Positions 42,611 through 62,237 of a DNA stretch of 64,000 nt are shown in pieces. Position 1 is the stretch's first letter. Every line of letters starts with the position of its first letter. Under the pieces are notes generated by a model that had not been told where the DNA came from, did not search any database, and saw only the letters and a program-made list of their open reading frames with translations. A program made the position numbers and the translations under genes. The stretch is from an uncultured Gammaproteobacteria bacterium (lineage in GTDB: Bacteria > Pseudomonadota > Gammaproteobacteria > UBA9214): contig CAWHCQ010000012.1 in NCBI GenBank assembly GCA_963827755.1, forward strand, positions 107,843 to 171,842. Reading direction: 5' to 3'.

Positions 42611-44783
42611 TTACACCACCCGGCGCGCCTCGACCACGTTCGGCAACTGGCCGATCAGGGTAAGCACACGACTCAGTTGCCCGATGTCGGAAATCTCCAG
42701 CGTCAGCCGCATGCGGGCAATCCCGTCGCGCTTGTCGGTTGCCGTATTGACGCCGCCCAGGTTTATTTTTTCATTGGCCAGCAAGGCCGTGATATCGCTG
42801 AGCAGGCCGGAGCGGTCATAGGCCTGCACCGATATCTCCACCGGGTACGTGTCTTCGAAAGACTCCCCCCACTCCACCTCGATCAGGCGGTCCCGGTCAT
42901 CGCCCTGCAACCTCAGCACATTGCCGCAATCCTGGCGGTGAATACTGACACCACGCCCGCGCGTGATATAGCCGACAATCGGGTCATTCGGAACCGGGCG
43001 GCAGCACCGCGCGATGGTTGTCAACAGGTTGCCGACACCAAGAATCTTTATTCCGCCGGGTGAGCTGGGCTGCTTCTTTTTCCTCGCTGCGTTTCTTTTC
43101 CGGCTGCACAGGGGCGCTGCGCGGCACCAGTTCGCTGGCGGCATTGGCAAGCTGGCCGGTGGTGATATCACCCCGCCCGATCGTTGCCAGCCATTCATCC
43201 ACCTGCTTGAAATTGAACCGGCCTGCCATTTTCTCGATGGGCAAGCCGCTGATACCAAGGCGATGGTATTCCCGGTCAAGAATCGCGCGGCCGGCACTGA
43301 CATTGAGCTCGTAGTCCTGGTGCTTGAACCAGGCACGGACACGCGAGCGCGCGCGGGAGGTCTTCAGGTAGCCCAGGTGGGTATTGAGCCAGTCCCGGCT
43401 CGGCCCGCCGTGGCGGGCGGTCAGGACCTCGACCTGCTCGCCGTTTTGCAATTCCCGGGTCAAGGGCACGATGCGGCCATTCACCTTTGCACCGCGACAG
43501 CGATGTCCAACCTCGGTATGGACCGCATAGGCAAAATCCAGAGGCGTTGCACCCTGCGGCAAATCGATAATCCTGCCCTGCGGGGTCAGGACATAGATAC
43601 GCTCGAGGAAGGCCTCGGATTTGAAACCGGTCGACAAAATCACCGGCACTGTGCTCCTCGTCCTTCCATTCAAGCAACTGCCTCAGCCAGGCAATCTTTT
43701 CCTCGTAGCCGGGATCAAAACCGCTGCCTTCCTTGTAGCGCCAGTGGGCCGCGACGCCCAGCTCGGCATGCCGGTGCATTTCCTCGGTGCGAATCTGTAT
43801 CTCCAGGGTGGCGTTTTCCGGCCCGACGACGGCCGTATGCAGGGAGCGGTAGAGGTTGTCCTTCGGGTTGGCGATGTAGTCGTCGAACTCCTTCGGGATG
43901 TGGCGCCACAGGCCATGCACGATACCCAGTGCGGCATAACAGTCCTTTTCCTCCTTTACCAGTATACGTACCGCGCGCATGTCGAAGATCTGGTCAAAAT
44001 CCAGGTGCTTGCGCTGCATCTTTCTCCAGATGCTGTTGATGTGCTTGGGGCGGCCGCTGATCACCGCCCGAATACCCTCCTTTTTCAGGGCCGCTGTCGA
44101 GAATATCGATGACCTTGTTGATGTAACGTTCACGCTCTTCCCGGCTTTCATGCAGCTGGTCCACCAGGTTCTGGTAGGCATCCGGTTCCAGGTAACGCAA
44201 CGCCAGGTCCTCCAGCTCCCACTTGATCTGCCAGATACCGAGACGGTTGGCCAGCGGCGCGTAGATCTCCATGGTCTCCCGGGCAATGCGCTGCTGCCGT
44301 TCCTTGTCCAGGTGCTCCAGGGTGCGCATGTTGTGCAGCCGGTCGGCCAGCTTGATCAGCACCACGCGGACATCTTCCGCCATGGCCAGCAGCAGCTTGC
44401 GCAGGCTCTCGGCCTGCCCGCCTTCATAGAGGCCGGCCTTGCCGGCGTCCTGGAATTCACCGATGCGGTCCATTTTGGTGACGCCGTCCACCAGGCGGGC
44501 AATCACCGGGCCAAAACCGTCCTCGATCTCCTTCAGGGTAAGCGTCGTATCCTCGACGACATCATGCAAAATCGCAGCCGCGATTGTTTCATGGTCGAGT
44601 TTCAGCCCGTTGAGGATCGCGGCCACCGCCAGCGCATGCAGGTAGTAGGGCTCCCCCGAGGCGCGCTGCTGGTGCTGGTGGGCCTCGACGGCCGTGTTGA
44701 CGGCCCTCGTGAGGATCGCCCGGGCGTCGTCGGGACGATCGGCGAGCAGCGATCTCGACGCTCTGCCGGGCTGCCTCCTTCAC
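42611..44783 (-). CDS. relA: (p)ppGpp synthetase RelA, long RSH (frameshifts near 44750, 44100, 43620 and 43060)
   Basis: Successive frames give QRASGEPYYLH/HDVVED, RPKH/EFDDY/EIQIRT, the TGS domain (DFAYAVH), and ZFD (ARCCRPVP) plus ACT domains. The start is approximate. Confidence 0.88.
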
Positions 44784-45273: not shown

Positions 45274-45953
45274 ATGTTAAAAATCATAATTAAACCAATG
45301 ATCACCATGTTTGCCCTGTTCGCACTGGCTGGTACTGCAACCGCAGCCCCATCAGATATTCCAGACTGGACCCAGATCGGCGGTGCAAACCCGGTTACGC
45401 CAACCAATATCCTCAGCACTGGCGGCGATTTCAAGTACAAGGTGGGCAGCAAGGGCAGTGTCAAGATGAGCTACAAGGCCAAGGGCAGCAAGGGTGCGGT
45501 CACCCTCAATGACGTCTCACTTGGTGGCGGTACACAGTTAGGCAACAGCATCACTATCCAGAAGTCAAAAGTTGATGTCAAAAAAGGTAAAATTAAAATA
45601 ACCGGCATCGACCCCCTGGGGACTTCCAATAAAAAGGTGACCCTCGTGACGGCTGAGTACGATGAATCGGCGTTCTTCTTTGACTACTCCGGCACGCTGC
45701 CCGGTCTTCGGGTCATGACCTGTTCGGTGTGAGCACATTCAACATCGATTGCCCCGTGTGGAGCTTCTGCACCACAGCTGAGAGCTTCTACGTTGCCGGC
45801 GACTTCGGAAACGACCCCAACAAGATCAAGCTTAAAGGTTCCAAGGGTGGCGCAACGGCTGTGACGACCATTCCGGTTCCTGCGGCAGTCTGGCTGTTCG
45901 GCTCCGGTCTTCTCGGCCTGGTCGGTGTTGCACGACGCAGGAAACATAGCTGA
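45274..45953 (+). CDS. PEP-CTERM-type (VPLPA-CTERM) exosortase-sorted surface protein (frameshift near 45705)
   Basis: GAGG RBS and signal peptide (ATA-A) in 45274..45732; C-terminal IPVPAAVWLFGSGLLGLVGVARRRK in the 45953 frame. Confidence 0.85.
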
Positions 45954-46332: not shown

Positions 46333-47865
46333 TCAGTCAGGCGACGATTCGTTAACAGCCGATTTACTCGCTTCGCGGCCGGCATTCATGTCCCGGGGCG
46401 GCTTGCCTGTTTCAAGTGGCGCAAGTTCACCGGACGGGTCCGTGAAGCCGTCATTCAATTTCTGCACAAAGCGGTTGGCCTCTGCAATTACCCGGTGCAG
46501 CCGTTTACGGGCACGATTATTCCAGCCCACCGGGGCCTTCCTGAAGACACTGTGCCAGGCGCGGGTGTTATGCAGGAAAGCCTGGCGCAGGCGGCCGCGT
46601 TCGGTACCCGGGACGATGTGTTTATCGATCTGTTTCAGGATCCGCCCGGCAGCAAAGCGGCGCATCCTGGAATGCAGGTAGGCAAACAGGACAACAGCGG
46701 CCAGGCCTGTGGCCACGGCCAAGGCGATATCACTCGTTGAGCCCTGCCACCACGCCGGGCTGACCAGCTGCCAACCGTCCCTGAGACCCGCCAGGCTGGC
46801 AAGCACGCTGCCCGCCACCAGGTAGCCGGCGGCAATGACACCATCGCCCCAGAGGACCAGCTTGCGCCAGCAGGCCCGGTAGGCGCGCAGACGCGGTACC
46901 GTCTTCTCTTCAATGTGGCGCGCCTGTTTTTCCAGCGCACCGGTGATCCGGTAGGCCCTTTCCACACCGACGCCCTGAATGCGTTTGTGTATCTCGCCGA
47001 GGTCGCGATCGCGCTTGGACTCGAAGCGGCTGCGTACGGCGTCGTCCTCGATGGTCACCGCGACATTCGGGTTGTAGATGCAGTAAAAACGGCCGGCCGT
47101 GAGGCCCTCCTGTGCCAGTGCCCGCTGCCAGGCGCCCACCACCTCTTCCGGGTTGTCTTCCCGTGCCGTGGTATCCATCTGGTTGAGGATATAGACGAAC
47201 TTGGTGGCATCCGGCCTGTGGATGGTGTCGCCGACCAGGTGCGCCAGGGTATCGCGCATGGCGCCGGGCTCGGGGTGGCGCGCATCGAAGAACACCAGCA
47301 CCAGGTCCGAGATATCGATAATGTGGTCGGTGAGCCGCAGGGTTGCATTGCGCTGCGAATCCGCATCGAATCCGGGAGAGTCGATAATGATCCGCCCGCG
47401 CACCTTCTCGCTGGGCACCGTCTTCAATTGCAGGTAGCTGTCGACCCGCCGCCCTTCTCCGCCGGCCACCTTCTCGAGTTCGTTGCTGATCTGGTAGAAC
47501 GGGAAGCGCGGGTCCGCGTCAAGTGCCGACCCGGGCAGGGCCTGTGAGCCCTGCTCGCCGCCAAAGCAGATCACCGTGAACTTGTCATCCACCGCCTGGT
47601 TGCCGGTACTTTGGATCGACTCGCCCAGGTAATGATTGATAAAGGTGGATTTACCGGCAGAAAAGGTCCCCAGCACCGAGATCATCGGCCACCAGGAAAT
47701 TTGTGTTGCGAAAGATTGTTCCGAATTCAGCAGGCCCAGTGAACGGCCGACCTGGTCAAGCTGGCGGTAGGTCTGGACGGCACTCACCAGCACCGGGTTT
47801 TCTTTTTTCAGATGCGACTCAAGACTTTTCAGCCGCTGTTTGATGGTTTTTGCTTCGCCAGACAT
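46333..47865 (-). CDS. dynamin/EHD-family GTPase with two C-terminal hydrophobic segments
   Basis: G1 GTFSAGKS, G2 Thr in QSTG, G3 DSPG, G4 NQMD and two hydrophobic helices near the C-terminus. Confidence 0.8.
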   Translation of the reverse strand: MSGEAKTIKQRLKSLESHLKKENPVLVSAVQTYRQLDQVGRSLGLLNSEQSFATQISWWPMISVLGTFSAGKSTFINHYLGESIQSTGNQAVDDKFTVICFGGEQGSQALPGSALDADPRFPFYQISNELEKVAGGEGRRVDSYLQLKTVPSEKVRGRIIIDSPGFDADSQRNATLRLTDHIIDISDLVLVFFDARHPEPGAMRDTLAHLVGDTIHRPDATKFVYILNQMDTTAREDNPEEVVGAWQRALAQEGLTAGRFYCIYNPNVAVTIEDDAVRSRFESKRDRDLGEIHKRIQGVGVERAYRITGALEKQARHIEEKTVPRLRAYRACWRKLVLWGDGVIAAGYLVAGSVLASLAGLRDGWQLVSPAWWQGSTSDIALAVATGLAAVVLFAYLHSRMRRFAAGRILKQIDKHIVPGTERGRLRQAFLHNTRAWHSVFRKAPVGWNNRARKRLHRVIAEANRFVQKLNDGFTDPSGELAPLETGKPPRDMNAGREASKSAVNESSPD

Positions 47866-48189
47866 CAATGATTCCTGCGGGTTGGAAGTCGCGTAATAAA
47901 CCCGTTAAAACGGGAATACCCCGGACATATCAATGCTGTCTCCATCGCACTGCAACTCTTTATTGTTTTCTTCAGAATCAGTCATTCAGGGACCTCCGGG
48001 GGGATTCTCTGGTGTGGGATCGGGACAGTATAACCAAGTCGCTGACGAATTTCGCCACCGACATCCTGATCGAGGCCCAGGCCGGGGTGTGAATAAAAAC
48101 CAGGAAACACACCGCCCGGCACCCCGGAACTGCGGCTTCTCAGCCACTTTTAGTCCCGGTGCGCCATGCGGCTGCTTTTCAGGATCCTG

Positions 48190-48800
48190 CTAGAAATCTC
48201 CCGAGGCACCGCGATTCATAATATCCAGAATCGTATCCTTGACCTTGTTCGCCTCTTCAAACAGGTCTGGAGAAAGCGTGCTGCCGCCGTGGATCATCAT
48301 GTCCATATTCAATGAATAGATCCAGAGTTTTCCGCTCTTGTCCTCGACGACCGAGACGCGGCACGGCAGGTAGGCTGAATATGCACCTGAATATTCCAGC
48401 ATCTTTGCAGCTATTAAAGGATCACAAAACATGTAGATCTTCCAGAAGCGTTGCTTTCTCACCCGTCATGGCCTCGACCTGGGCAGAGAGCGGCAACTCG
48501 CCGACATTTTTAATATTGTGTTCGTTGGCAACAAAACGCATCGTTTGCTCAACGTCTTCCGCACTCAGGTCGTCCGCAACCGGGATCTTCCAGACCGTGG
48601 CCTCGGCCGCATTGCCCGAGGCAAGCAAACGCTTGGACATCTCCATGTAGACTTCGGCCGGCCTTGCCATCAAATTCCGACAGGTTTTTAAGGTCCTTGA
48701 TATTCTGCAGGCCGAAATCATGACTGACCGCCAGCCAGATCACACCCGCCAATAACGCCAGACCCAGCAAGGCCAGCAAGTTCCAGATCAGTTTAAACAT
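48190..48800 (-). CDS. DUF302 domain protein with N-terminal TM (frameshifts near 48660 and 48455)
   Basis: AGGAG RBS; MFKLIWNLL TM, then NIKNVGELPL, then IYMFCDP...YLPCRVSVVED DUF302-type motifs over three frames. Confidence 0.75.
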
Positions 48801-48833
48801 ATCGCTCTCCTCGTTACTGTATGTTTGTAATGA

Positions 48834-50344
48834 CTATTCTGAGTCAGACCGGGCCATCTCGATCTCGTGTTCGAGGGCATCTGCCTGGGGGCCGTTCAGC
48901 CCGCGAATCACGTCAACCAGCCCACTGGCCGGTGCCAGCAAACCGGACTCGACAAGACGCAAGCCGGCCTCGTAATAGGCCGAAGCGGCCGCTTCCCAAT
49001 CACCCTGGCTGAAATACATATTCGCAAGCTCTCCATAACCATCGGGATTATTCGGGTCCTGCAGGATCATCTGCTGGTAGTAGTCCCCGGCCGCCTGGTA
49101 ATCACGCATCCAGTAGGCTTCCCGTGCCAGTGCCAGCAGCTGGTGGGCAGAAAGCGTTGCATCGACAGGCGTTGCCGGCACGGGTGCCCGCATTGTCGCT
49201 TCGGCCTGTGCGGGAATCGCGTCAATGACATACGCATCATCAAGGCTCGCCACAGGTGCATGGGACAGGCCTGAATCCGGCGCGCCGTTTTCACTGGCCA
49301 CGGTGGCTGGAGCCGTTCCGCTCGCAGCCGCTGCGGCAGCCGCACCCGACTCCGCTGTCACGGGCGCGATAGCTTTTTTGGCTGCCGTGTCCCGGGCAAG
49401 CCCTGCGGCGGCCTCTTCGATTTCTTCAGTGTCATGCGGATATGCCGTCACGACATCAGCACCTGGAAGCCCGGGGCGCGTGCCGACATCCGGAATCGCT
49501 GTCGCCGAATCCATAGCAGCGGCTTGCATCGGTCGCGGCCTCTGCGGCGTCTTCCGCCACTGCTGCACGTCCCGTATCCGTTGCCTTTGTCAACGCAACC
49601 GCCGCACCCGGGGCCGTGATGGCTGCTTGCTCGACAGGTGCCTGCAGACTTTCTGCAACGGGCGTTTTGGCTGTTTCCATCGCTGCTGACATCCCGGCGC
49701 TGGCTGATTCTGCAGTGGACGGCATCGCTGCAGCGCCGGTCCCTGAAGCAGGTATCTCTGTCTCGACTTCCTTGACAGATTCAGCTGCCTTAATCACAGC
49801 GGGCTCGCTGGTTGCAATCGCATCAGCACCGGCAGGCTCGCTTGTGTCTGTTTCATCAGCACCGGCAGGCTCGCTTGCATGGCCTGTCTGCTTCAGCGCC
49901 GGCAGGCTCGCTCATGGCCGCTGCTTCAGGGGCAGCAGCTTCGCTTTCATCGGCTTCATCAGCATCATCCGTTTCATCAACTCCGCTCCCGGCAGTCGCA
50001 GCGGCAATCGCCGGCCTGCTGTCGGCGGGCAAACCGGCATCGGGTACGCTCACCCTGTCGACAGGCGGTACCGTGGCGGAAACATCGCCAGTGCGGACAG
50101 TCGGGGCATCCCGGCTGCCTGTAGCCAGTGCCGGTCGCATGCCGTCAAGCTGTACCGGTGCGGGCTCAATTTTTCCTGCCAGCCGGCCATCGCCGGTATC
50201 TTTTGCTGAATCAAACACCAGGAATTCCGGGAGTTCCCAGTCGGGAAACAATTCACCCCGGTATATAAATCCGATGGCCAGCAACAGCACCAGTGCAATT
50301 GCAAAACCGTGACTCATTAAACGTGCTATAAATTTCATAACCAC
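48834..50344 (-). CDS. membrane-anchored Ala/Glu-rich disordered protein with C-terminal TPR-like module (frameshifted)
   Basis: N-terminal TM (49856..50344), low-complexity A/E/D/S middle (49456..49797), then LAREAYW...PDGYGELANMYF...AYYEAG TPR-like end (48834..49568). Probably one ~500-aa gene. Confidence 0.7.
49796..49915 (-). repeat. short coding repeats (SEPAGAD-like, about 4 copies)
   Basis: CAGC(A/G)CCGGCAGGCTCGCT occurs three times, plus a degenerate CAGCGGGCTCGCT. Confidence 0.7.
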
Positions 50345-50362
50345 TGCTCCATCATTAATATA

Positions 50363-51022
50363 TTACGAATTTCCGGGCGCATCAGGGTAAAGTGCGCTTG
50401 CCAGTGAACGAAATTCCTCAGCCGCCTTGCTGCGCGGCCACATTTCGAAAACGGCAAGCCCTTCACTCAATGAGCGCCTGAAACTGGTCCTCATGGAAAG
50501 GCGTTGCGGCAACACGTCATCGATCGCCGGTAACATCTGCAAGGCCTCCTCTGTCTCTGCTGTCTCCCGAATTGAATGATTGGTATCGGCCCGGTTTATA
50601 AAGGCAATTGTCCTCTGACCCCCGCTCATTTTCACTGCGTCCAGATCCGATCCTATAATGTGGAGAAAACGCTGCGTGGCCCAAACATCCGGCTGGCTGG
50701 GTGGCACCGGGATCAGGATTCGGTCTGCTGCTGTCATCGCCTCTTTCATGGCAGCCATATTGGCGGCTCCAACATCGACAATGACCTCCACCCCTTCATG
50801 TGCAAGCAACTGGTTTTTCAGCACGGCGCGCACCGAGTGGATCGTCAGATCCGGTGAGGTTCCCACTTCCTTTCGCAGCATGGCAAGGTCGCTGAAGGTA
50901 CATTGCGGATCAAGATCATAACCGACTACCGGGACGGCGTTCTTCTCCAGCCATACAGCCAGGTTGAAAGCGACGGTACTTTTCCCGGAACCACCCTTGA
51001 GATTGGCAATAACAGTAATCAT
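50363..51022 (-). CDS. orphan ParA/Soj-family ATPase
   Basis: Deviant Walker A ANLKGGSGKST, DLDPQ and IVDVG; 219 aa, no N-terminal HTH, no parB nearby. Confidence 0.88.
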   Translation of the reverse strand: MITVIANLKGGSGKSTVAFNLAVWLEKNAVPVVGYDLDPQCTFSDLAMLRKEVGTSPDLTIHSVRAVLKNQLLAHEGVEVIVDVGAANMAAMKEAMTAADRILIPVPPSQPDVWATQRFLHIIGSDLDAVKMSGGQRTIAFINRADTNHSIRETAETEEALQMLPAIDDVLPQRLSMRTSFRRSLSEGLAVFEMWPRSKAAEEFRSLASALYPDAPGNS

Positions 51023-51209
51023 ACAATCCTTCTACATCCCGGTAAAAAATTCACAATGTATAAAACGAGCCATAACGCATGACTGCGCCAGGCGCGTTCG
51101 CTTGCTGGCTGATTTTTATCGAGCGGCCGGTATTACCGGCACCGATGCCGGAGCGATCTCGCGCGAACCAGACCCGCCATGATTGATAACGCGCAGTATA
51201 AACCGATTC

Positions 51210-51866
51210 CTACCAAACATATCCAGGATATCCCGCACCCGGCATAACGCCATCAGGTGCCGCCCCCCAGCCGTAATATCCGCCGCCGGTCGGTGTCCCC
51301 CACTGGTATGGATTCGGTGGCTGCCGGGTCGCCTGTTTGGCGGAATTTGACTGACGGCCTCGAGAAGCACCTGCCTGCTGTCCCCAGGGCCGCTGGTCGT
51401 ACTGGAACTGCTGTGTTGTTTGCGGGTCCTGCTCTGGAAACGTCCAGATCTTCTCAGCCATATTTCGCTGAGTTTGGGAAGTACCATACCTCGGGGCCTC
51501 GTATGTCTGCTGCGGTGCCTTGTATATCTGCTGTGCCCCCCAGGCCGGCTCTGACTGAAACGAAGTTTGACCCTGCGAGCCCCATTCCTGCTGTGGTGGC
51601 GCCGGAGGATATGTCTGTGCCGGCATCCTGTTCACCTGTTTCGGTGCACTAACCGCCCCCGCGGCGGGCCGTTGATAAACCCGGCCCGGTGCCTGATATT
51701 GCGCAGCAGGAGAAGTCACGGATTCGGGAGGCGGGCAATTGCAGGCTGCAGCCTTTTTATCCGGCTCGTCATCACCGCATGCACTTGCCAGGAGCGAGAC
51801 ACAAAGCAGGACTATCCGGCAAGTTGGATGCGTTGTAAATGATTCAGTCCCCGCGACCATGCTCAT
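51210..51866 (-). CDS. Pro/Gln/Tyr/Gly-rich lipoprotein
   Basis: Lipobox LASAC, CNC motif, disordered P/Q-rich body and a G/Y/W/P tail (GGGYYGWG...GAGYPGYVW). Confidence 0.7.
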   Translation of the reverse strand: MSMVAGTESFTTHPTCRIVLLCVSLLASACGDDEPDKKAAACNCPPPESVTSPAAQYQAPGRVYQRPAAGAVSAPKQVNRMPAQTYPPAPPQQEWGSQGQTSFQSEPAWGAQQIYKAPQQTYEAPRYGTSQTQRNMAEKIWTFPEQDPQTTQQFQYDQRPWGQQAGASRGRQSNSAKQATRQPPNPYQWGTPTGGGYYGWGAAPDGVMPGAGYPGYVW

Positions 51867-51902
51867 TAATCAGGTAAGGTGAATGCCAACACGGGGTTGT
51901 CA

Positions 51903-52604
51903 TTAGCGCCCTGCACCACTCTGATATGCGCCGGGTGGTGCCTGCATCATGGCATCGTACACCGCTGGTGGCGGTACTTCCTCTTCAGCCTGATAAGGCT
52001 GTGAAGGATAATACCCGCGTGGTGGCGGTACTTCCTCTTCAGCCTGATAAGGCTGTGAAGGATAATACCCGCGTGGTGGCGGCCGGCTCCCGAAATCCTG
52101 TCCGTCCATTTGTCCCATGTATCCCGAAGGCCGGGGCCAGGCCTTCACAGGCAACTCCGGCGTCCTGTTTTGATAGGCACCCGGTACCCGCGCCAGCGGC
52201 TGTTTTCTTGCCGGCTGACCGACTGGTCCCCGCATCACCGGTGCCTGATAGGCTGGTACCTGCTTCATTGGTGCCTGACGTACCGACGCCGGGTTCACTG
52301 GCGCCCGGTAGTTTGCCCGTCCCCCGGCTGCCTTTGCCGCAGCGCTTGTGTCAGGCACCCTGTTTCCAGTGGGTTGCGGAAACAGGGGTATATTGCCCCT
52401 GGCAGAAGTCCCTGCCTGTCCCGGTATGCGTGGATCAAGATTAACCGCCCGGTAGGGACCCGGAGGGGGTGGCGCCGACACCCTGCGCCAGTCGCCCGTA
52501 TCAGCCGATACGGACACTACGGTGGTCATGAGTATTGCAGTACCGCCGACGATTATGGACATCAGCAGAGATAAATATCCTGTCAGACTGTGGGCATCTT
52601 TCAT
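51903..52604 (-). CDS. exported Pro-rich low-complexity protein
   Basis: Hydrophobic N-terminus ending VSA-D, APPPPGPYRA motif, P/A/G/Y/Q-rich body, AGGAAG RBS. Confidence 0.7.
   Translation of the reverse strand: MKDAHSLTGYLSLLMSIIVGGTAILMTTVVSVSADTGDWRRVSAPPPPGPYRAVNLDPRIPGQAGTSARGNIPLFPQPTGNRVPDTSAAAKAAGGRANYRAPVNPASVRQAPMKQVPAYQAPVMRGPVGQPARKQPLARVPGAYQNRTPELPVKAWPRPSGYMGQMDGQDFGSRPPPRGYYPSQPYQAEEEVPPPRGYYPSQPYQAEEEVPPPAVYDAMMQAPPGAYQSGAGR
51967..52082 (-). repeat. exact 54-bp tandem duplication (PPPRGYYPSQPYQAEEEV x2)
   Basis: GGTGGCGGTACTTCCTCTTCAGCCTGATAAGGCTGTGAAGGATAATACCCGCGT at 51967 and again at 52021. Confidence 0.9.
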
Positions 52605-52659
52605 CGCCAGCTTCCTTTGGTTTGACGCACTACTCAAATACTACCCGCTTGCTCCATCT

Positions 52660-55600
52660 CTAGCTTAGGTCCTGCTTTAAACGAATGCCACGACGTTTCC
52701 TCCCGGGACTATCATCCGGGCCATCGTCTGAGTGAACTTCCTCCGTATCGGCTGCATCAGATGCTGTTACCGTTGCCGGTGGCGACTCCTCCGCTGAAGG
52801 TGGCGTTCCAGCTGCTGCCGGGGTCTCCCCCGGTGGCGGTGGCGTACCAGCCGATGCCGGCGTCTCCCTCGGTGGCGGTGGCGTACCAGCCGATGCCGGC
52901 GTCTCCCTCGGTGGCGGCGGCGTACCAGCCGATGCCGGCGTCTCCCTCGGTGGCGGCGGCGTACCACCTGATGGTGGCGCCTCTCTCGGTGGCGGTGGCG
53001 TACCAGCCGATGCCGGCTTCTCCCTCGGTGGCGGTGGCGTACCACCTGATGGTGGCGCCTCTCTCGGTGGCGGTGGCGTACCGCCGGACGGTGGCATCTC
53101 TCTGGGTGGCGGTGGTGTTCCCCCGCCCCTGGGTGGCGCCGGGGGTGGCGGCGTTCCGTCAGGCGAAGGCTCGCGTGGCGGTGGTGGCGTACCCTTGTCG
53201 CGCCGCCCCATTACACCCTTGAAACCCATGGCTACCAGGTTGAAGATCGCCTTGATAATGATGAGCACCCACCCAAGCATCGAGATGATCCCACCCCACA
53301 GGCGCACCGGTAGTGACGTACCCGAGGCGCCAGATTCTGTTTTTTCAGGAATCTTCTCCATTCGTTCATAGGCAGGGTTGATCGCTACGGTCCCGTCATC
53401 ACCCGTCTCGATGTAGAACTGTTTCTTGGCGCTGATACAACCCATTGGAATGATAATAAAGGCCATCAGCGTCGAAACACCGGCACCAAATACCAGGCTG
53501 ATGGCCATGCCGTTGAAAATCGGGTCATCAAGAATGGCAAAGGCACCGGCCATTAATGTCAGCGAGGTAATCAGGATGGGGCGCATGCGCAGTTCAGCGC
53601 CTTTTACAGCCGCATCGGTAACATCCATACCCTTTGCGACCCCGAGTTTCACAAACTCCACCATCAGGATCGATTGTCGGACAATGATTCCACCGAGCGC
53701 GATCATGCCGATCATGGATGTTGCAGTGAATTCCGCACCCATGATCCAGTGACCGGGAACAATTCCCAGCATGGTTATGGGGATCGGTGACATGATCAGC
53801 CCGGCCAGGGCGAAATTCTTGAACTCCCAGACAATGAGTCCATAAATCAGGATCAGTGCAGCCATGAATGCACCACCCATGTCCCTGAAAGTCTCATAGG
53901 TTACGGTCCACTCGCCGGTCCACTCAAAATGTGATTTTGTGTCATCATAATTCAGCTCAAGCAGGGTCCAGGGCATGGTGTCCATCTTGACGCCGTCGGG
54001 TGTGGTGTATTCCTTTATCAGGTCTTCGACACCGAACATGCCGTAAATGGGGGCACCCAGGCGACCTTCCATTTCACCGACCACGTATTCAACACCCCGC
54101 AGGTCCTTGCTGTAGATCACCGGATCTTCATAGCCTTTTACAAAATGACCAAGCGATGATAACGGGATGGTTTTGCCATCGGCGGTCGGTATCGGCAGGT
54201 CGCCAAGACGTGAGACCTGCGAACGAATGGTCAGCGGCACCTGGATGATGATATAGGTGGGTTCGAGCACGGTGCCGCGCTTGATGTCACCCAGCTTGTA
54301 GCCGCCCATGGCCATTGCCAGGATACCGTTGATCGTATCCACAGAGACGCCGAGACGAACAGATTTTTCTGTTGCCACTTCAAATCGCCAGAATTCATAG
54401 GGGTCGGTCATGTAGGTGTCGGTATCAACGAGGTTCTCGACCTCGTCGAACATTGCCAGCATATCCGTGGCGACCTGGCGCCGGGTACCGGCATCCGGTC
54501 CATAGACCTCGGCAACGACCGTGTTCAGTACCGGCGGGCCCGGCGGCATTTCAACAACGGCAATGCGCGCACCCATGCGGTCAGCAATCGGTTTGAGAAT
54601 CTTGCGTGCCTCTACCGCGATTTCATGGCTGCCACGCTTGCGCTCCTTCTTGTCTGTGAGCATGACAAGCAGATCACCTTCCCATGAACGTTGGCGCAGG
54701 TAATAGTGCCTGACCATGCCGTTAAAGTTGAACGGTTGTGCAGTACCGGCATAGGTTTGTACGGCGGTGACTTCCGGCATGGCACGCACCGCTTCTGCCA
54801 GGGCCAGGGTCGCATTTGCCGTATCCGGCATGGCAGTCCCTTCCGGCATGTTGACGATGACCGAGAACTCCGGCTTGTTATCAAACGGCAGCATCTTTAC
54901 CGCCACGTGCTGCGTATAAAATGTCATACACACGGCAGCCGTGAGGCCGATAATGCCGAACAGGAAAATCAGCCCCAGTTTGCGATTTTTCACCAGGACC
55001 ATGATTACCGGCCGGTAAAAACGGCTGATCCTCTCATGCGCCTTTTTCTCGCGCATTGCCGCCTTCTCCAGCGCCGCATGTCGGGGCGCCACCTTGACAG
55101 CCATCCACGGTGTAAATATGAAGGCCGCAATCAGTGAAAAGAACATGGCAGATGAGCCAAGCACCGGAATTGGCCGCATGTACGGCCCCATCAAGCCACT
55201 GACCCAGCCCATGGGTAACAATGCCGAGATAATTGTCAGGGTTGCGAGGATTGTCGGGTTACCGACTTCACGGACGGCATCGATGGCGACGGCAACGCTG
55301 GTCTTGCCCTTTTCAAGCCAGTGTCGAAAAATATTTTCAACCACGACCGTTGCATCATCAACGAGGATACCGATAGAAAATATCAGGGCGAAAAGGCTGA
55401 CACGGTCGATGGTGTAGTCGACCATCATCGCCCACCAGATCGTCAACAGAATAACAACCGGGATAACCGCGATAACCACGAATGCCGCACGCGCACCCAG
55501 TCCGATAAGACACAGAAATGAGACAATCAATGCGGCTTCCAGCATCGCGCCAAGCAGGTCATTGACCTTGTCATTCGCTGACTTGCCATAATCACGCGTA

Positions 55601-56658
55601 ACCGTGACATGGACATTTGCAGGGATCAGGCCTTTGTTGACATCCTTCAGCTCTTCAACCTTTGCCAGAATCGCTTTGGCCACCTTGACACCGTTGGTTC
55701 CTTCTTTCTTGGCCACGGCGATGGTTACAGCCGGCGCACCGTCGGCCACAGGTGTGGAATCATCATGCGCGGAACCGGTAAAATGCGTCACCATCCTGGT
55801 TGGATCGGATGGCTCCTGGGACACATCGGCCACATCGCGCACATAAACCGGGGAACCATCACGCACTGCGACAACCAGGCGTTCAAGTTCTTTCGCGCTT
55901 GTGAGAAAAGAACCGGTGCGTACCGAAAACAGTGTGCCACCCGACTCGGCACTTCCTGCCGTCGTTTCCGCATTGGCGGTTTGTATGGTCTGCGCAACCT
56001 GGGCCAGGCTGAGACCGTAGCCGGACAGGCGCTCGGGCAGCACCTCGACTTTTATCTGCTCCTCACGACCGCCGACGATGAACCCCTTGCCGACATTGTG
56101 CACTTCACCCAGTCGCTGTAACACATCGAGACCGAGCGAGCGCAGGGCACCGTCATCCAGGTCTTCTGACCAGAGCGTCAGGGTTACAATCGGGACATCG
56201 TCAATTCCCACCGGCTTGATAAGCGGGGGGTTCACGTTAGGCGGAATTTTGTCCATGTTCGAGAGAATCTTGTCACGCACCTTGACAATCGATTCACCCA
56301 TATCCTCGCCGACCTTGAAACGCACCGTGACAATCGAATTCTCACGCTCGGTGGCTGTGTAGGTATGCCGTACACCGGGAATTTCCAGCAAGATGCGTTC
56401 CAGCGGTTCGGTCACCAGGCTGACTACCTGGCCCGCCGATGCACCGGGGTACTGAACGAAGATATCGATCATTGGAACCGATATCTGGGGATCTTCCTGG
56501 CGTGGTGTAAAAAACAGTCCGACCACACCCACAAGCAACGATACGATGAGTATCATGGGTGTAACCGGAGAGGTGATGAATATACGCGTTATTCTTCCGG
56601 CTATCCCCAGTGTGTGGGGGTCGTAATTGACAGGTGTCGAAAAATCTTGTTCAGCCAT
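52660..56658 (-). CDS. RND efflux permease (AcrB-like) with a long C-terminal extension
   Basis: PRQEDPQI, YPGAS, TM4 GILVDDATVVVENI, TM10 GIIVRQSILMVE and RMRPILITS; 1332 aa including a Pro-rich tail. Confidence 0.92.
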   Translation of the reverse strand: MAEQDFSTPVNYDPHTLGIAGRITRIFITSPVTPMILIVSLLVGVVGLFFTPRQEDPQISVPMIDIFVQYPGASAGQVVSLVTEPLERILLEIPGVRHTYTATERENSIVTVRFKVGEDMGESIVKVRDKILSNMDKIPPNVNPPLIKPVGIDDVPIVTLTLWSEDLDDGALRSLGLDVLQRLGEVHNVGKGFIVGGREEQIKVEVLPERLSGYGLSLAQVAQTIQTANAETTAGSAESGGTLFSVRTGSFLTSAKELERLVVAVRDGSPVYVRDVADVSQEPSDPTRMVTHFTGSAHDDSTPVADGAPAVTIAVAKKEGTNGVKVAKAILAKVEELKDVNKGLIPANVHVTVTRDYGKSANDKVNDLLGAMLEAALIVSFLCLIGLGARAAFVVIAVIPVVILLTIWWAMMVDYTIDRVSLFALIFSIGILVDDATVVVENIFRHWLEKGKTSVAVAIDAVREVGNPTILATLTIISALLPMGWVSGLMGPYMRPIPVLGSSAMFFSLIAAFIFTPWMAVKVAPRHAALEKAAMREKKAHERISRFYRPVIMVLVKNRKLGLIFLFGIIGLTAAVCMTFYTQHVAVKMLPFDNKPEFSVIVNMPEGTAMPDTANATLALAEAVRAMPEVTAVQTYAGTAQPFNFNGMVRHYYLRQRSWEGDLLVMLTDKKERKRGSHEIAVEARKILKPIADRMGARIAVVEMPPGPPVLNTVVAEVYGPDAGTRRQVATDMLAMFDEVENLVDTDTYMTDPYEFWRFEVATEKSVRLGVSVDTINGILAMAMGGYKLGDIKRGTVLEPTYIIIQVPLTIRSQVSRLGDLPIPTADGKTIPLSSLGHFVKGYEDPVIYSKDLRGVEYVVGEMEGRLGAPIYGMFGVEDLIKEYTTPDGVKMDTMPWTLLELNYDDTKSHFEWTGEWTVTYETFRDMGGAFMAALILIYGLIVWEFKNFALAGLIMSPIPITMLGIVPGHWIMGAEFTATSMIGMIALGGIIVRQSILMVEFVKLGVAKGMDVTDAAVKGAELRMRPILITSLTLMAGAFAILDDPIFNGMAISLVFGAGVSTLMAFIIIPMGCISAKKQFYIETGDDGTVAINPAYERMEKIPEKTESGASGTSLPVRLWGGIISMLGWVLIIIKAIFNLVAMGFKGVMGRRDKGTPPPPREPSPDGTPPPPAPPRGGGTPPPPREMPPSGGTPPPPREAPPSGGTPPPPREKPASAGTPPPPREAPPSGGTPPPPRETPASAGTPPPPRETPASAGTPPPPRETPASAGTPPPPGETPAAAGTPPSAEESPPATVTASDAADTEEVHSDDGPDDSPGRKRRGIRLKQDLS
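52797..53194 (-). repeat. ~39-bp coding tandem repeats (GTPPPPRExPxS, 10 copies plus one degenerate)
   Basis: Counted in the translation; visible on + as recurring GGTGGCGGTGGCGTACC. Confidence 0.92.
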
Positions 56659-56702
56659 GCTCTATTCCGCCTTATTATGTGCCTAGCTCGGTACGCTTAC
56701 TG

Positions 56703-57840
56703 TTAATTCCATGAGTTAGCGGGTTCGTTTGAGTCTCCTCCCTTGATAAAAATACGTTCCCCTATGCGCAGACCCGAGAGAATCGAAATCTTGTCAGCAC
56801 CGACGGTATCGCCGGTCCTCACCAGGCGCATTTCACGCTTGTTCTGTTCATTCATGACATAGAGCCCGGGCAAACTGCCACGCCATACCAACGCCTCGAG
56901 CGGGACAACCGGCAGATCGACAACCTGTGCATTGATATCCCTGATCTCGACTTCCGCGTACATGCCGGCACCACCCGGAGCGCCCGGTGGCAAATCCAGC
57001 TTGACGGTTACTGTATGACGGTCCTCGTCGGCAATCGGGAAAATCTGGGCAACACGCGCCTGGGTCATCACGTTGCCAACATCCAGCCTCGCCCTGAAGA
57101 CCATGTCTTTTTTAACACCCGGCATCAGCCGGGCAGGCACCTCGACCTTGATTTGCATTTTCGACAAATCGGAATACTTGATCAATGGTTGCCCGGGTTG
57201 TACCGGGTCACCTACTTCAACAAATTTTTTCGTGATCACGCCGTCAAATGGCGCAATCGATTTTGCGTCACGAATCTTGGTATCGATTTCCTCGATCGCG
57301 GAACGTGCAGCGATGAGTTGCCCGCGGGCCTGTTGTACAAACGTACCCTGCTGGTAGAGCTGTGCATGCCGGTCCATCCCCGGCGATGAATTACTACCCA
57401 TCATGCCCTGCATGGGATTGGTAAATCCTTTCATCATCGAGCCCAGGCCACCCATGGAATCATTGGCTTCACCGCCATAGGGCGAGATCACTTCGCGCGA
57501 ATACTGGACACCGGCGTTGCGCAGGGCAGCCTCGGCATTGGCAAGATTGGCAAAGGCCGCGCGGCGTTTGGCCAGCAAGTCATCGTCATTGATTGCAATC
57601 AGTTCCACGCCTTCTTCGAACTGGTCACCCTCTTCACCGGCAATGGACTTGATACGTCCGGGAATCTGCGCGGAAAACGTAACGTCTATAAAAGGAACCA
57701 CGGTGCCACCCAGCGTCACCATGGACCCGACAGGTACACCCTGGACAGTAATAAGCGTATCAGCCGCTACCGGCATAAGCACACCGAACAGCAGGACAGC
57801 CCCGGAAAGCAAGACTACTGACAAATTTTCTGATTATCAT
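56703..57840 (-). CDS. RND periplasmic adaptor (MFP) with Met/Gly-rich insertion
   Basis: Lipoyl halves SAQIPGRI...EEGD and APFDGVI...VEVGDPVQPG, C-terminal ILSGL. The likely start is ATG 57840 (GAGG RBS) with a 1-nt error, or TTG 57824. Confidence 0.88.
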
Positions 57841-58029
57841 TGCTAATCCTCACGCACATGACGCTGCAAGGCCAGGGTACACTTTGCAAGTACCGGCGCT
57901 GTCTGATGACAGCGCCTTTCAGGCCAACCAGACAACGGTTGGGTTGATCGAACCCTTACGGGCTTCTTCTGTCGATGAGGCAGCGGAGAGCATTATTCAA
58001 TATTATTGTTATCCACAAACTCACACTTG

Positions 58030-58060
58030 AAAAAACGCGCCCGCTTCATATCAGGCACGT
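58030..58060 (-). terminator. rho-independent terminator overlapping the SCP2 stop
   Basis: Minus strand ACGTGCCTG-ATATGAAG-CGGGCGCGT-TTTTT: 9-bp stem with two G:U pairs followed by a U tract. Confidence 0.55.
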
Positions 58061-58446
58061 CCCATTACAGTAAAACTTTTGATAAACGGGCCCGCCATCC
58101 GTGGATCCTTGATCATGGCGGCATAGTCGCCGATCTGGAACTTCAGCTTTCGCGAAGTGTAAGCCATACCCAGGCCCATCATACCGGGTGGCTTGGCCAT
58201 CCATTTGTTCCAGTTGTCAAAAGTAGCACGCAGATCCCAGCTCAATTTCTGGTCGTTATAGATCTCCCCGGCCGTCGCCTTGCCATTTTCAACGACGAGA
58301 ACGCAACGCGGTGTATCTTCGCCATCAAAACCGTAACCAATAACGGAATTAAAATTGATCTTTGCAAGCGCGTCTGATAAATCAGGCTCGGCATTCCACT
58401 GTTCCTGAAAACTGTTGACCCACTCACTGGAAAATAAATCTGCCAT
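58051..58446 (-). CDS. SCP2 (sterol carrier protein 2)-like protein
   Basis: GGAG RBS; LFSSEW start, LVVENGK, DLRAT...W and AYTSRKLKFQIGD resembling the SCP2 A-F-M-x-G-K-L-K-x-x-G-D motif. Confidence 0.7.
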   Translation of the reverse strand: MADLFSSEWVNSFQEQWNAEPDLSDALAKINFNSVIGYGFDGEDTPRCVLVVENGKATAGEIYNDQKLSWDLRATFDNWNKWMAKPPGMMGLGMAYTSRKLKFQIGDYAAMIKDPRMAGPFIKSFTVMGRA

Positions 58447-58909: not shown

Positions 58910-59383
58910 GTGAAAGAACAAAACGAAGAAACGAACGATTCGACGCACAGTGAACGCGGCATTGAAAGGCGCACCCCGTCATTATCGACCCTGCACGGCG
59001 CACTGTTTAAATATCGTCGTCGCGGCTCCCGGCGCCAGGGGGAGCACATCAATAGTTATGTTGACTGGTATGGCCACTGGACTCTGCTGGCAACCTTCAC
59101 GGTAATCCTGCTCTGCTGTGCAGATGCCTTTCTGACGATTGTTTTGCTGAGTAATGGCGCCGCTGAAATGAACGTCCTGATGGACTGGCTCATTCAGAAG
59201 GATATTCGTTCTTTTGCAGTTGTTAAAATGGGTGTTACCGGCCTGGCGCTTGTGGTACTGGTCATGCACCTTAACTTTCGTGTCTACAAGGTGATTGCCG
59301 TGCGTTACCTGATCTTTGCACTGGTGCCCATGTATTCAATGTTGATTGCACATGAACTGCATATGCTTTCCCAGCTTCACTGA
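58910..59383 (+). CDS. DUF5658-like membrane protein with Arg-rich N-terminus
   Basis: GGGAG RBS; ERR/RRR N-terminus, YVDWY, then DAFLT...GAAEMN...KM hydrophobic domain. Confidence 0.65.
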   Translation: MKEQNEETNDSTHSERGIERRTPSLSTLHGALFKYRRRGSRRQGEHINSYVDWYGHWTLLATFTVILLCCADAFLTIVLLSNGAAEMNVLMDWLIQKDIRSFAVVKMGVTGLALVVLVMHLNFRVYKVIAVRYLIFALVPMYSMLIAHELHMLSQLH

Positions 59384-59431: not shown

Positions 59432-60055
59432 TTATTCAACAACCGGACAGACCTGCAGCAATTCCGCTGCAATCTCGCCGCTCAACTCTGCAATGGCCAT
59501 GCTGGATGCATGCACCAATGCCTCGTAGCTCCTCCCGGACATTTGCCTGGTGATCACTGAATCATACAAGCCAAGCGCCTTACCGGTTTTCTGGGAAACC
59601 AGTATCCAGCCGACATCCAGAATAACCGCACCACCGAACTGCCCGTCAAACTGCCTGACATCAAGCTCTATCCTGTAATCCGGCCTGAATCGCCGGGTCA
59701 GACGAAAATCCGCAACGTTACTGGATTGCAGCAAGCCGGACAGATTCTTTTTCATGACCCGTTCGAAATCATCCTGCAGGCTGCCGGCCCAGCGATGAAA
59801 TTCGTTGAAGTCCATCGTATTCGGGCCGCTGCGGGTAACGATCCGCGGCTGGTCCAGGTAACGCGGCCAGGTGACCGGTCCGATTCCAATCCCCTTCTCG
59901 CTACAGGCAGTGCCGGCAGATTCCGGCTGCACCGCCGGCATATCTGTACCGAGGGTATAGAAAGCAACCGGCGGTGACTTGCCGGCACAGCCGCTGGCAA
60001 GCATCACGACCAGGGCTGCCATTGCAGTCAGCATCCTGTACTTTTTTTTCATCAT
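59432..60055 (-). CDS. pqiC: PqiC-family lipoprotein
   Basis: Lipobox LASGC, FYTL, P.YLDQPRIV and HRWA; downstream of pqiB. Confidence 0.85.
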   Translation of the reverse strand: MMKKKYRMLTAMAALVVMLASGCAGKSPPVAFYTLGTDMPAVQPESAGTACSEKGIGIGPVTWPRYLDQPRIVTRSGPNTMDFNEFHRWAGSLQDDFERVMKKNLSGLLQSSNVADFRLTRRFRPDYRIELDVRQFDGQFGGAVILDVGWILVSQKTGKALGLYDSVITRQMSGRSYEALVHASSMAIAELSGEIAAELLQVCPVVE

Positions 60056-61603
60056 CAGTTCACCTTGCCCCGTATGAGTGCCTCGGGATGACGATCAAGA
60101 TAGTCAGCCAGGACACGCAGGGTACGTGCTGCCTCTGACAACTCGACCAGGGTATGCTGCAATTCCTGCGACAACGGTGCATCCGCCTCAAACATTTGTT
60201 TGACGGTTTTCAGCGTACTCTCGGCCTCGACAATGGTTTTATCCAGCTTGCCAAGCGTGACCGTCAGGTCCTTGCCCAGCTCGTCGAGTGGAAAATTCTC
60301 CAGCTTTTCCAGTACAGCAACAACACTCTTTGTGATCTCATCAATTGATGTCGGGAATGGTCGGCATCACCGGGTATTGACCGGACTTTTCAATGCGGGC
60401 CTGTTTGGCATCCGGATAAAAGTCCAGGTCCACATAAAGCTGGCCGGTCAGCAGATTGCCCATTTTCAGCTGCGCACGCAGTCCACGTTCTACCAGTCTT
60501 TCCAGCTGCGCCAGGCTCTCTTCCTCTGACTGCAGGAAACTCAATGGGGCAAGCCGCTCGGGTTCGGTTTCGATCAGGACCGGGATATGAAACTGCTCCG
60601 TTTCCGCATCAAACTCAATATCAACATCGATGACCCTGCCCAGCTGAATGCCCTTGAATTCCACTGACGCACCTTTTGATAAACCGCGTACCGAGCCGTC
60701 AAAATAGAGCAGGTACCTTCGTGTAATATTTGCCTCTCTGACCAGCACAGCTTCATGATTGTCATAAAGCTTGAAGACACTGTTTCTCGACGCAGGCCTG
60801 CCCAGTCTTCTGTTTTCCGGGACCTCGAAGGCAATACCGCCGATCAGCAGGCTGACCATGGATTCCGTCCCCACCTTGATACCTTCCGCCGTCATGGAAA
60901 AATCCACACCGCTGGCATTCCAGAAACGGGTATTCTCGGTAACATGCAGGTGGTGAGGAGCATACACAAAAACGGTAAAATCAACCGTTTCACCATCTTC
61001 AGACAGTTCATAGCTCTCTACCTCGCCGACCTTGATCTGGCGATAATAGATGGGGGCACCGACATCCAGCGAACCGCGCCGGCCCGCCTTCAGCACGAAG
61101 TGCAACCCGGGCTGATCGGTGGTGACGATCGGTGCAGATTCCAGTCCAATGAAATGCCTTGCTGATTCTCCCTCCTCAACCGGGTCAACTCCAATATAGG
61201 CACCACCCAGCAAGGTATTCAGGCCGGTCACACTTCCCGCGCTGATGCGGGCCCGCACCACCCAGAAACGGGTCTTGTCGGTCAGGTAGGGCCCGGCATC
61301 TTTGTTCATCTCGACGGTAACCAGCACATGCTCAAGATCTTCTTCAAGGTCGATTGCCGAAACCTGCCCGACCTCTACATCCTTGAATTTCATCTTTGTC
61401 TTGCCGGCCTCCAGGCCTTCAGCAGTCTTGAAGACAATGGTAATGGTCGGGCCGCGGTCGGAATATGCCTGCCAGGCTACCCATGCACCGATCAATGCTG
61501 CAACCAGCGGGATTAGCCAGACGATCGAGAAACCGCTGCGCGTGGTGGCTACGGCTTCCGGAATGGCATCATCAGACAGCGGATCAGGATGCGGGTTTGT
61601 CAT
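60055..61603 (-). CDS. pqiB: PqiB MCE-domain protein (frameshift near 60350)
   Basis: VWLIPLVA, three MCE domains (GLEAGKT, GSLDVGAPIYYR, GLSKGASVEFKG) and C-terminal HPEALIRGK before TGA at 60055. Confidence 0.88.
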
Positions 61604-62237
61604 CTATCGGTTCCAGGTTGTCCCAGATATGCCGGGGATCAAAAGACATGGCGGCAAAAATTGTAATGATAACAACAGCACCGAAAGAATATCGCACCAA
61701 GCCCCGCTTTGATGGTTGCGAGATTACCCAGGCTTACCAGTGCCACAAGAATAGTAACCACATAAATATCCGTCATCGACCAGCGACCCACGGCCTCGGT
61801 CATACGATACAGGCGCGCTCTCTCCTCGCGGTCGCCAGTGGGATTTTCGCTGCACCGAAATCAGCAGGTAGCTGAGCGTAATGATCTTTGCCAGCGGCAA
61901 CACGATGCTGGCAACAAATATCACCAGCCCGATCGGCCACTGGCCATGGAGCAAAAAATAGATAACACCGCTCATGATGGTATCTTCCTGCGTACTGCCA
62001 AGCGAGGTCACCGCTGTCATCGGCAGCAGGTTGGCGGGTATGTAACAAATAATCGCAGCAATCAACAGCGCCCAGGTGCGCGAAATACTGTTTGGTTTAC
62101 GTGCATGCAGAACCGCCCCGCAACGCGGACATTCAGCCTTTGCATGCGGCCCTGACGAAACCGCCTTGCTGAGCAGATTACAGCTGTGACAGGCGACCAG
62201 GCCGGCATCTGCAGCAGTTTTCTGCAACACCCGTCAT
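61584..62237 (-). CDS. pqiA: PqiA-family protein, second copy (frameshifted)
   Basis: ACHSC...CPRCG zinc ribbon, IPANLLP, GRWSM(T)D and C-terminal SFDPRHIWD, across several frames. Confidence 0.82.

Follow-up and report, generated by a model that had tools for sequence, protein, structure and literature searches.

The window analysed here is a 64,000-nucleotide stretch of an uncultured gammaproteobacterium (GTDB UBA9214; contig CAWHCQ010000012.1 of assembly GCA_963827755.1), and its positions 46,333 to 58,446 hold a cluster of genes that is one copy of a conserved cassette. The cassette comprises genes for an SCP2-fold protein, a periplasmic adaptor (membrane fusion protein, MFP), a tailed resistance-nodulation-division (RND) transporter, two Pro-rich exported proteins (P4 and P5 in the window), a sulfur globule protein (Sgp) and a DUF4412 protein in many relatives, a ParA ATPase, a tetratricopeptide repeat (TPR) protein, a DUF302 protein, a coiled-coil protein and a dynamin-family NTPase. 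It is real, widespread, apparently undescribed and tied to sulfur-globule formers. The cassette is conserved, tracks genomes with Sgp or dsrA genes, frequently includes an sgp gene, has no linked TolC, and in some copies has lost a motif at the end of the RND tail together with ParA. On balance, we lean towards a pump that delivers a hydrophobic cargo out of the inner membrane to a periplasmic globule with an Sgp coat, its position being set by ParA acting on the RND tail.

Conservation of the cassette

An RND search of genome contigs gave 74 loci, to which further regions from other genomes were added. Gene content was compared in 59 loci, the window included, each with MFP, RND and at least 8 kb of downstream sequence; duplicates L087, L093 and L094 were dropped, and about one-third of the set comes from one genus. 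DUF4412 was present in 46 of the 59 loci, a one-helix coiled coil in 45, ParA in 44, SCP2 in 43, Sgp in 39, TPR and dynamin in 35 each, DUF302 in 26 and MlaC in 5. Cassette order was the same within the genus, and in other families too at about 40-60% identity; in the family that includes Halochromatium roseum, 55 of 61 genomes carry the MFP. The dynamin gene stands head to head with the MFP gene in Halochromatium, Lamprobacter, Thiocapsa and Sedimenticola. All 19 loci fetched from a second class of the phylum kept the order SCP2-MFP-RND-DUF4412, DUF4412 being followed mostly by one or two sgp genes and then by ParA and the coiled coil. This class presumably represents the magnetotactic cocci, because Magnetofaba australis has the SCP2 protein at 79%. 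The co-occurrence in other genomes on which the initial annotation had staked its case was therefore found, with gene order held across families and two classes.

Stand-alone RND paralogues lacking an MFP were also seen (L016-L020, L059, L067, L071, L078 and L080). They have long tails in which the terminal motif is degenerate or lost, and they are closer to the RND of the window than are the cassette copies of the same families. A pair of MoxR-type AAA genes follows dynamin in L012 (21813-23234), L041 and L051, possibly by chance; an AAA_3 gene, Alvin_1904, adjoins sgpA in Allochromatium vinosum.

Association with sulfur globule proteins and dsrA

The extra gene that precedes DUF4412 or ParA in relatives encodes an SgpA/B-type protein; among five tested, three scored over the PF17228 cut-off and two below it. 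The 39 loci with an sgp gene inside the cassette come from both classes, and in both the gene occupies the same slot before ParA. A hidden Markov model (HMM) built from eight cassette Sgps matched in 33 of 49 gammaproteobacterial loci, a count that is partly circular, and in 16 of 19 second-class loci. Independent Pfam SGP matches lay about 5 kb behind RND in all three Pfam-positive genomes of the second class. The connection to globule coats that had been suggested from the window was thus borne out by real Sgp genes within the cassette of relatives.

Co-occurrence was examined in an even draw of 260 Gammaproteobacteria, each at least 90% complete, which was searched five times and of which 259 were counted. 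G236 (not scored for dynamin and RND) and G019 (SCP2 match at 29%) were left out of counts, and G057 contributes only one dynamin-positive row. The RND subfamily was called by a score gap (subfamily at least 940 bits, sister clade at most 865). Read as a pattern and not as a probability, because the genomes are kin and p-values are overstated, RND and Sgp occurred together in 33 of the 259 genomes, RND only in 12, Sgp only in 1 and neither in 213, which places RND in 33/34 Sgp-positive and 12/225 Sgp-negative genomes. Among the 78 genomes with dsrA the corresponding counts were 30, 11, 1 and 36 (RND in 30/31 with SGP and 11/47 without), and the same RND/Sgp comparison by family gave 24, 8, 0 and 31 (RND in 24/24 families with SGP and 8/39 without). 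SCP2 behaved similarly in the 259 genomes (both 30, SCP2 only 14, Sgp only 4, neither 211), and dynamin more loosely, with 28/34 Sgp-positive and 24/225 Sgp-negative genomes. A phylum draw of 190 genomes contained 35 with RND and dsrA, 1 with RND only, 3 with dsrA only and 151 with neither; in the 259-genome set RND was present in 4 genomes without dsrA. RND and SCP2 hardly occur outside genomes with Sgp and/or dsrA, in agreement with the profile expected by the initial annotation, and the cassette is probably linked to globules.

The same association could arise if the cassette served globule use or the envelope, through lipid movement that remodels the membrane around globules or through mobilisation of stored sulfur to the cytoplasmic rDsr. 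RND tracks dsrA tightly in the phylum draw, an MlaC-like gene is present in 5 of the 59 cassette loci and follows one sgp gene of this genome, and the SCP2 and dynamin families are classically tied to lipids and membranes. This explanation is nevertheless unlikely in our judgement: RND tracks Sgp better than dsrA, being absent from 36 of the 47 dsrA genomes without Pfam Sgp as well as present in the 4 without dsrA, and the transporter keeps export-type proton-relay residues.

Several genes of these kinds were noted in passing. In this genome a cassette-type-like sgp followed by the MlaC-like gene lies at G000:C14:84251-85291; elsewhere MlaC follows dynamin in L056, L063, L076 and L132. A 344-aa frame at G000:C29:5466-6500, adjoining a [NiFe] hydrogenase cluster, combines an SgpA/B-type protein with a long Glu/Gln/Arg/Met-rich coiled coil and looks like a Gly/Tyr coat type fused to an SgpD-like rod. 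A near-duplicate of this stretch was found at G000:C28:1-900.

The transporter, its adaptor and the SCP2-fold protein

The transporter matched PF00873, and its best NCBIfam names were multidrug RND permeases, all far below cut-off. Of the proton relay, GILVDD in transmembrane helix (TM) 4 and RxRPIxIT in TM11 are kept, while the TM10 Lys (Lys940) is replaced by Arg. The MFP scored 143 bits with TIGR01730 (cut-off 94.9). Between its hairpin helices it bears a conserved Met/Gly/Phe-rich insert of about 35-40 residues; by profile positions, residues 123-169 correspond to 103-110 in 6VEJ, and 121-165 to 101-113 in MexJ. The hairpin tip of other adaptors docks TolC. As the initial annotation had noted, the cluster contains no outer-membrane channel or regulator gene. 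An outer-membrane-factor HMM made from the five such genes of this genome matched at 1 of 126 and 0 of 20 further loci, not all of which hold the cassette, and the sole match (L022) lies beyond SCP2 and an opposite-strand gene.

That the cassette is simply a drug or metal efflux pump whose neighbours have nothing to do with it, as the NCBIfam names might suggest despite their scores, is highly improbable in view of the conserved gene order across families and classes, the restricted distribution and the lack of a linked outer-membrane factor. The preference of the initial annotation for a globule-building or positioning system over a drug pump is supported by conservation, by the genome profile and by the Sgp genes in the cassette. 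It is also conceivable, at a low probability, that the cassette encodes a sulfur-detoxifying efflux pump that expels elemental sulfur or polysulfide through a borrowed TolC, its linkage to sgp reflecting a shared regulon. AcrAB works with an unlinked TolC, the five outer-membrane-factor genes elsewhere in this genome could serve in trans, which weighs against globule delivery, and a Cys-bearing ArsR gene stands between sgp and SCP2 in L128 and L129. The insert at the MFP hairpin tip speaks against such a pump, and efflux leaves the ParA-coupled tail, the periplasmic scaffolds and the coat genes unexplained. The two ArsR regulators (L128:13823-14110 and L129:9480-9767) have an N-terminal Cys and a C-terminal CTNC; we take them to resemble persulfide sensors of the BigR/SqrR kind.

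The SCP2-fold protein had no Pfam or NCBIfam match, and PF02036 was not matched. A single-sequence model was poor (pLDDT 49.5) and was replaced by an AlphaFold2 (AF2) model built from an alignment (pLDDT 95.5), for which Foldseek returned 2cx7 (TM 0.76, probability 1.00) and also UbiJ-SCP2. The predicted structure and its match support the SCP2-like carrier originally proposed. Homologues are labelled 'SCP-2 sterol transfer family' in Magnetofaba, Thioalkalivibrio paradoxus and Chromatiaceae.

A C-terminal RND motif lost together with ParA

The RND tail is variable in length and sequence (100-390 aa in relatives) yet ends in RRGIRL(K). R-G-I-x-L was invariant in 29 tails, which had been selected for having the motif; in the open frames of this genome (1.5 million residues) the pattern occurs 3 times, and only in this RND is it C-terminal. 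Among 49 loci with the ParA slot visible, 42 had both motif and ParA, 6 had neither, 1 had the motif only and none had ParA only. All five motif-positive genomes without ParA in the cassette have a ParA elsewhere (205-294 bits), and none of five motif-negative genomes has a cassette-type ParA (best 78 bits). Copies of the cassette without the motif fall in four places on the RND tree (FastTree, 61 sequences plus outgroup); RRGIRL was lost together with ParA four separate times. Because of this repeated joint loss, we predict that the tail end is a ParA partner peptide, which comparison of the sequences makes probable.

The ATPase itself matched PF01656 over cut-off and NF041546 below cut-off. 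It has a deviant Walker A motif, KGGSGKS, with invariant signature Lys9, a conserved basic RTxFRRS patch and no MinD-type membrane helix. Its nearest structural neighbour is ParF, followed by McdA. According to the portion of PMC10241942 available to us, partners of ParA-type ATPases use a basic disordered end, which is N-terminal in the known cases.

The likely Allochromatium vinosum counterpart and its expression

In supplement 3 of PMC11267869, the part of that source used here, Alvin_1764-1759 are listed as MFP, acriflavin-resistance RND, two hypotheticals, CbiA/ParA and a hypothetical, with efp and its modifier within the six genes that follow. This order and these neighbours are shared with the Halochromatium cassette. 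Alvin_1759-1764 are likely orthologues of the cassette, matched by annotation and gene order alone. The exporter beside sgpD (Alvin_2516-2517) was considered as the cassette RND and rejected, the matching gene order being at Alvin_1759-1764.

In the pyrite versus sulfide column of the supplement, Alvin_1759-1764 change 0.65-1.5-fold, as compared with 0.04 for dsrA, 0.06 for sgpD, 0.32 for sgpB, 0.63 for sgpA and 1.05 for sgpC. In the elemental-sulfur column, the reference of which is not stated in the table, Alvin_1759-1764 change 0.34-1.1-fold. dsrA, dsrE, sgpB and sgpD drop strongly in both columns, sgpC in the second only and sgpA little. In this data set the cassette is outside the sulfide-induced set and behaves like sgpA; the induction with sulfur genes that had been anticipated was not seen, as the likely orthologues do not follow dsr, sgpB and sgpD. 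Flat expression argues against membership of a simple sulfur regulon; for machinery that is always present it is neutral.

Proposed function

We propose that the cassette may encode inner-membrane machinery for periplasmic sulfur globules. The proton-driven RND would take a hydrophobic cargo (S8 or long-chain or organic polysulfanes or, alternatively, a lipid) from the inner membrane, possibly with the assistance of the SCP2 carrier in the cytoplasm. Cargo would then go up the MFP funnel, whose Met/Phe-rich tip would contact the Sgp-coated globule instead of TolC, while P4, P5, DUF4412, the TPR anchor and DUF302 may form a periplasmic scaffold. A nucleoid-sited, ParF-like ATPase would bind RRGIRL at the end of the RND tail and so space or localise the pumps, and hence the globules. 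Two further proteins, the dynamin-family NTPase and the one-helix coiled coil, would be optional membrane shapers. That the cargo is sulfur is a tentative assignment, a little short of an even chance. More doubtful is the full picture of globules as actively built and positioned organelles, in which a TolC-less RND loads elemental sulfur from the membrane directly into an Sgp-coated periplasmic body, a nucleoid-bound ParA spaces the pumps by way of a peptide on their cytoplasmic tail and thereby positions a cargo on the other side of the inner membrane, and an EHD-like ATPase shapes the membrane around that body.

Several observations, the flat expression and the kinship among the profiled genomes included, weigh against this proposal. 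Pfam Sgp was detected in only 3 of 35 RND-positive genomes of the second class, whose 19 fetched loci yielded no dynamin, TPR or DUF302. The RND and MFP pairs of L082, L083 and L139 belong to the subfamily and stand without a cassette. The known ParA-partner peptides in the available portion of PMC10241942 are N-terminal, while RRGIRL is C-terminal. The sgp and DUF4412 genes that lie between the lipoprotein and ParA in most relatives are missing from the copy in the window, where the coiled-coil gene is also deleted. Finally, dynamin was present in 16 genomes without RND, 12 of which also lack dsrA. The warning of the initial annotation that homologues might be common in organisms without sulfur inclusions bears on dynamin, found alone in those 12 genomes, and not on RND and SCP2, which are restricted.

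Another reading is that the cassette is a general module for the envelope or for cell shape (for intracytoplasmic membranes or other inclusions, for example), inherited in lineages that store sulfur by coincidence, the sgp genes being passengers. Flat expression in A. vinosum, dynamin alone in non-dsrA genomes and inflation of the profile by kinship favour such a module. It is improbable, slightly more so than sulfur efflux, when set against the sgp gene in the same slot before ParA in two classes and the distribution of RND: of 35 RND-positive families all but 1 have dsrA, Pfam Sgp or both, and the cassette of the exception (L112) has Gly/Trp-rich genes that are Sgp-like by eye, although the cassette-Sgp HMM gave no match there.

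Each part of the cassette belongs to a known family, and the whole assembly fits none of the systems tested. With AcrAB-TolC, MexAB-OprM and other HAE1 RND pumps it shares an RND core with proton relay and an adjacent MFP. Unlike those pumps, it has no linked outer-membrane factor, an insert at the adaptor tip, a 100-390-aa C-terminal tail with a basic motif and Arg for Lys940, and all named NCBIfam models are below cut-off for its RND. The magnetosome island, an analogy only, is likewise a cluster of transporter, TPR scaffold, membrane shaper and cytoskeletal positioner that builds one inclusion. With McdAB and ParF-ParG (PDB 4DZZ, 5U1G and 6NOO; PMC10241942, in part) the cassette has in common a ParF-like ATPase that has the signature lysine and lacks a membrane helix, and a candidate basic disordered partner peptide. 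It differs in that an inner-membrane transporter bears this peptide at its C-terminus and that the cargo would sit on the far, periplasmic side of the membrane; neither McdB nor ParG was recognised among the genes. As to the A. vinosum proteins SgpA, SgpB, SgpC and SgpD (PF17228), SgpA/B-type genes lie within the cassette of most relatives, and P4 and P5 are likewise exported and of low complexity. The available portion of PMC10386293 places the A. vinosum Sgps, as coat proteins, in separate transcription units and assigns no transporter, ATPase or dynamin to globule building.

Other proteins of the cassette

P4 and P5 had no Pfam or NCBIfam family and no PF17228 match at E 0.01. Their composition (Gly 10-11%, Tyr 6%) is unlike that of the cassette Sgps (Gly 36-39%, Tyr 9-12%), and the suggestion that these low-complexity exported proteins are themselves Sgps was rejected. 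A PPPPGPY motif follows RND in 28 of 78 MFP-linked loci versus 1 of 20 stand-alone loci. The TPR gene matched PF14559 and PF13431 near cut-off, and the DUF302 gene matched PF03625. In the parts of PMC5037610 and PMC5248467 that could be consulted, a DUF302 gene is found in sox clusters without soxCD. Searches for solved structural relatives of DUF302 and DUF4412 returned none. The one-helix coiled coil was placed in no family by the Atlas, and its Pfam and NCBIfam matches were coiled-coil noise below cut-off. At G000:C28:23905-25357 this genome has a paralogue of it (40% identity) and, after that, an exported charged coiled-coil protein; the paralogue may stand in for the deleted cassette copy.

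The dynamin-family NTPase matched PF00350 (G1 GTFSAGKST, G3 DSPG, G4 NQMD). Its best PDB matches were EHD4 and EHD2, in the G domain only, with E 5e-7 to 1e-5 from the single sequence and weaker values with a profile; no BDLP structure matched at E 0.01. The Dynamin_N domain is common to EHD2, EHD4, bacterial dynamin-like proteins and the cassette protein. Unlike EHD, the latter has no EH domain by Pfam, two membrane helices instead, and NQxD as G4. EHD-like two-helix dynamins with 46-59% identity also stand alone in genomes without RND and mostly without dsrA (L104-L111, L113, L114, L118 and L119); dynamin was alone in all 12 RND-negative genomes with surroundings read. Dynamin genes without the cassette occur in Thiomargarita, judging from the available part of 10.1101/2022.04.11.487978.

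The gene cluster in this genome

Coordinates and Pfam/NCBIfam calls confirmed the nine co-oriented genes in the order first described, all on the minus strand: SCP2-fold protein, MFP, RND, P4, P5, ParA, TPR, DUF302 and dynamin-family NTPase. From the coordinates, the intergenic gaps along the cluster are 210, 44, 55, 36, 187, 24, 33 and 324 nt (Table 1).

Table 1. Features of the cassette copy in the window
Feature	Position	Strand	Basis or comment
SCP2-fold protein, 131 aa, no signal peptide	58051..58446	-	AF2 model and Foldseek; candidate carrier, in the cytoplasm, for a hydrophobic ligand
Periplasmic adaptor (MFP) of the RND, hydrophobic N-terminus (signal or anchor) without visible lipobox, frameshift at start in assembly	56703..57840	-	TIGR01730
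Insert rich in Met, Gly and Phe at MFP hairpin tip, about 35-40 aa (bounds approximate)	57366..57494	-	Alignment and profile positions
RND transporter, distinct AcrB-like subfamily, 253-aa Pro-rich C-terminal tail	52660..56658	-	PF00873
RRGIRL motif ending RND tail, candidate ParA-binding/activating peptide	52678..52695	-	Conservation, co-occurrence with ParA
P4, exported Pro-rich disordered protein with PPPPGPY motif	51903..52604	-	Signal-like helix, 19% Pro
P5, predicted lipoprotein (LASAC), rich in Gln/Pro/Ala/Gly, Tyr/Gly/Trp-rich end	51210..51866	-	Sequence, composition
Orphan ParF/McdA-like ParA ATPase, no membrane-targeting helix	50363..51022	-	PF01656, signature Lys9
N-terminally anchored protein, long Ala/Pro/Glu linker, C-terminal TPRs; three frames in assembly	48834..50338	-	TPR matches
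Membrane-anchored DUF302 protein; three frames in assembly	48190..48800	-	PF03625
26-codon remnant of one-helix Met-rich coiled-coil gene (internal deletion)	47905..47985	-	Ends match L011:10154-10669
Dynamin-superfamily NTPase, two membrane helices (343-398)	46333..47865	-	PF00350

The MFP start ATG at 57840 is out of frame in the assembly, and the TPR and DUF302 genes are each broken over three frames. In short-read contigs from three DNA runs a single base is missing at each of 57806-57811, 48656-48660 and 48454-48458. At the first of the two TPR breaks, the one covered by the alignments examined, two short-read runs have gaps that restore the frame. Because short-read contigs restore the frames, the MFP, DUF302 and first TPR breaks are assembly errors, and pseudogene decay of MFP and DUF302 was rejected, the contigs being without the extra bases. 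All three genes are intact in the relative locus L011, where the TPR orthologue has 571 aa. The coiled-coil remnant sits before dynamin and matches the start and end of a 171-aa gene in L011; its deletion looks real, because one short-read contig bridges the remnant without a gap. Many single-base errors occur in the assembly, and relA (42611-44626), glycogen phosphorylase (24209-26774) and pqiA (61724-62845) are likewise split over frames.

The genome comprises 2.85 Mb in 52 contigs, with dsrA over cut-off and five Pfam SGP matches, all on contigs other than that of the cluster. Its DNA was best represented in sediment metagenomes; a single RNA run contained 0.06 of the sequence words and gave short contigs only. 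A promoter/terminator scan was at chance level (10 versus 7.8 and 16 versus 12.4). Just upstream of the cassette are a DUF5658 gene (58910-59383, plus strand), the family of which clusters in 28 loci, and a frameshifted pqiABC-type lipid transport set (59432-62845, minus strand). Between relA and dynamin lies a gene for a 152-aa exported protein without Pfam or NCBIfam family (45274-45732, plus strand).

Implications

To our knowledge, how sulfur enters and leaves periplasmic globules, and what controls their number and place, is a long-standing gap. We know of no precedent for an RND transporter that delivers into a periplasmic inclusion rather than via TolC, nor for a ParA partnered by a transporter tail. 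No description of the cassette was found in the literature searched, from which subscription papers were mostly beyond reach; PMC10386293, in the portion available, describes coat proteins alone, and globule localisation that varies between species. Globule formers may be recognised more reliably by the RND/SCP2 pair than by Pfam SGP, with which divergent coats go undetected. The cassette may be the machinery that fills and places sulfur storage globules, and because annotation and synteny point to candidate genes (Alvin_1759-1764) in an organism open to genetics, the question is directly testable. If the proposal is true, an RND transporter would deliver into a periplasmic inclusion and a ParA would act through the tail of a transporter.

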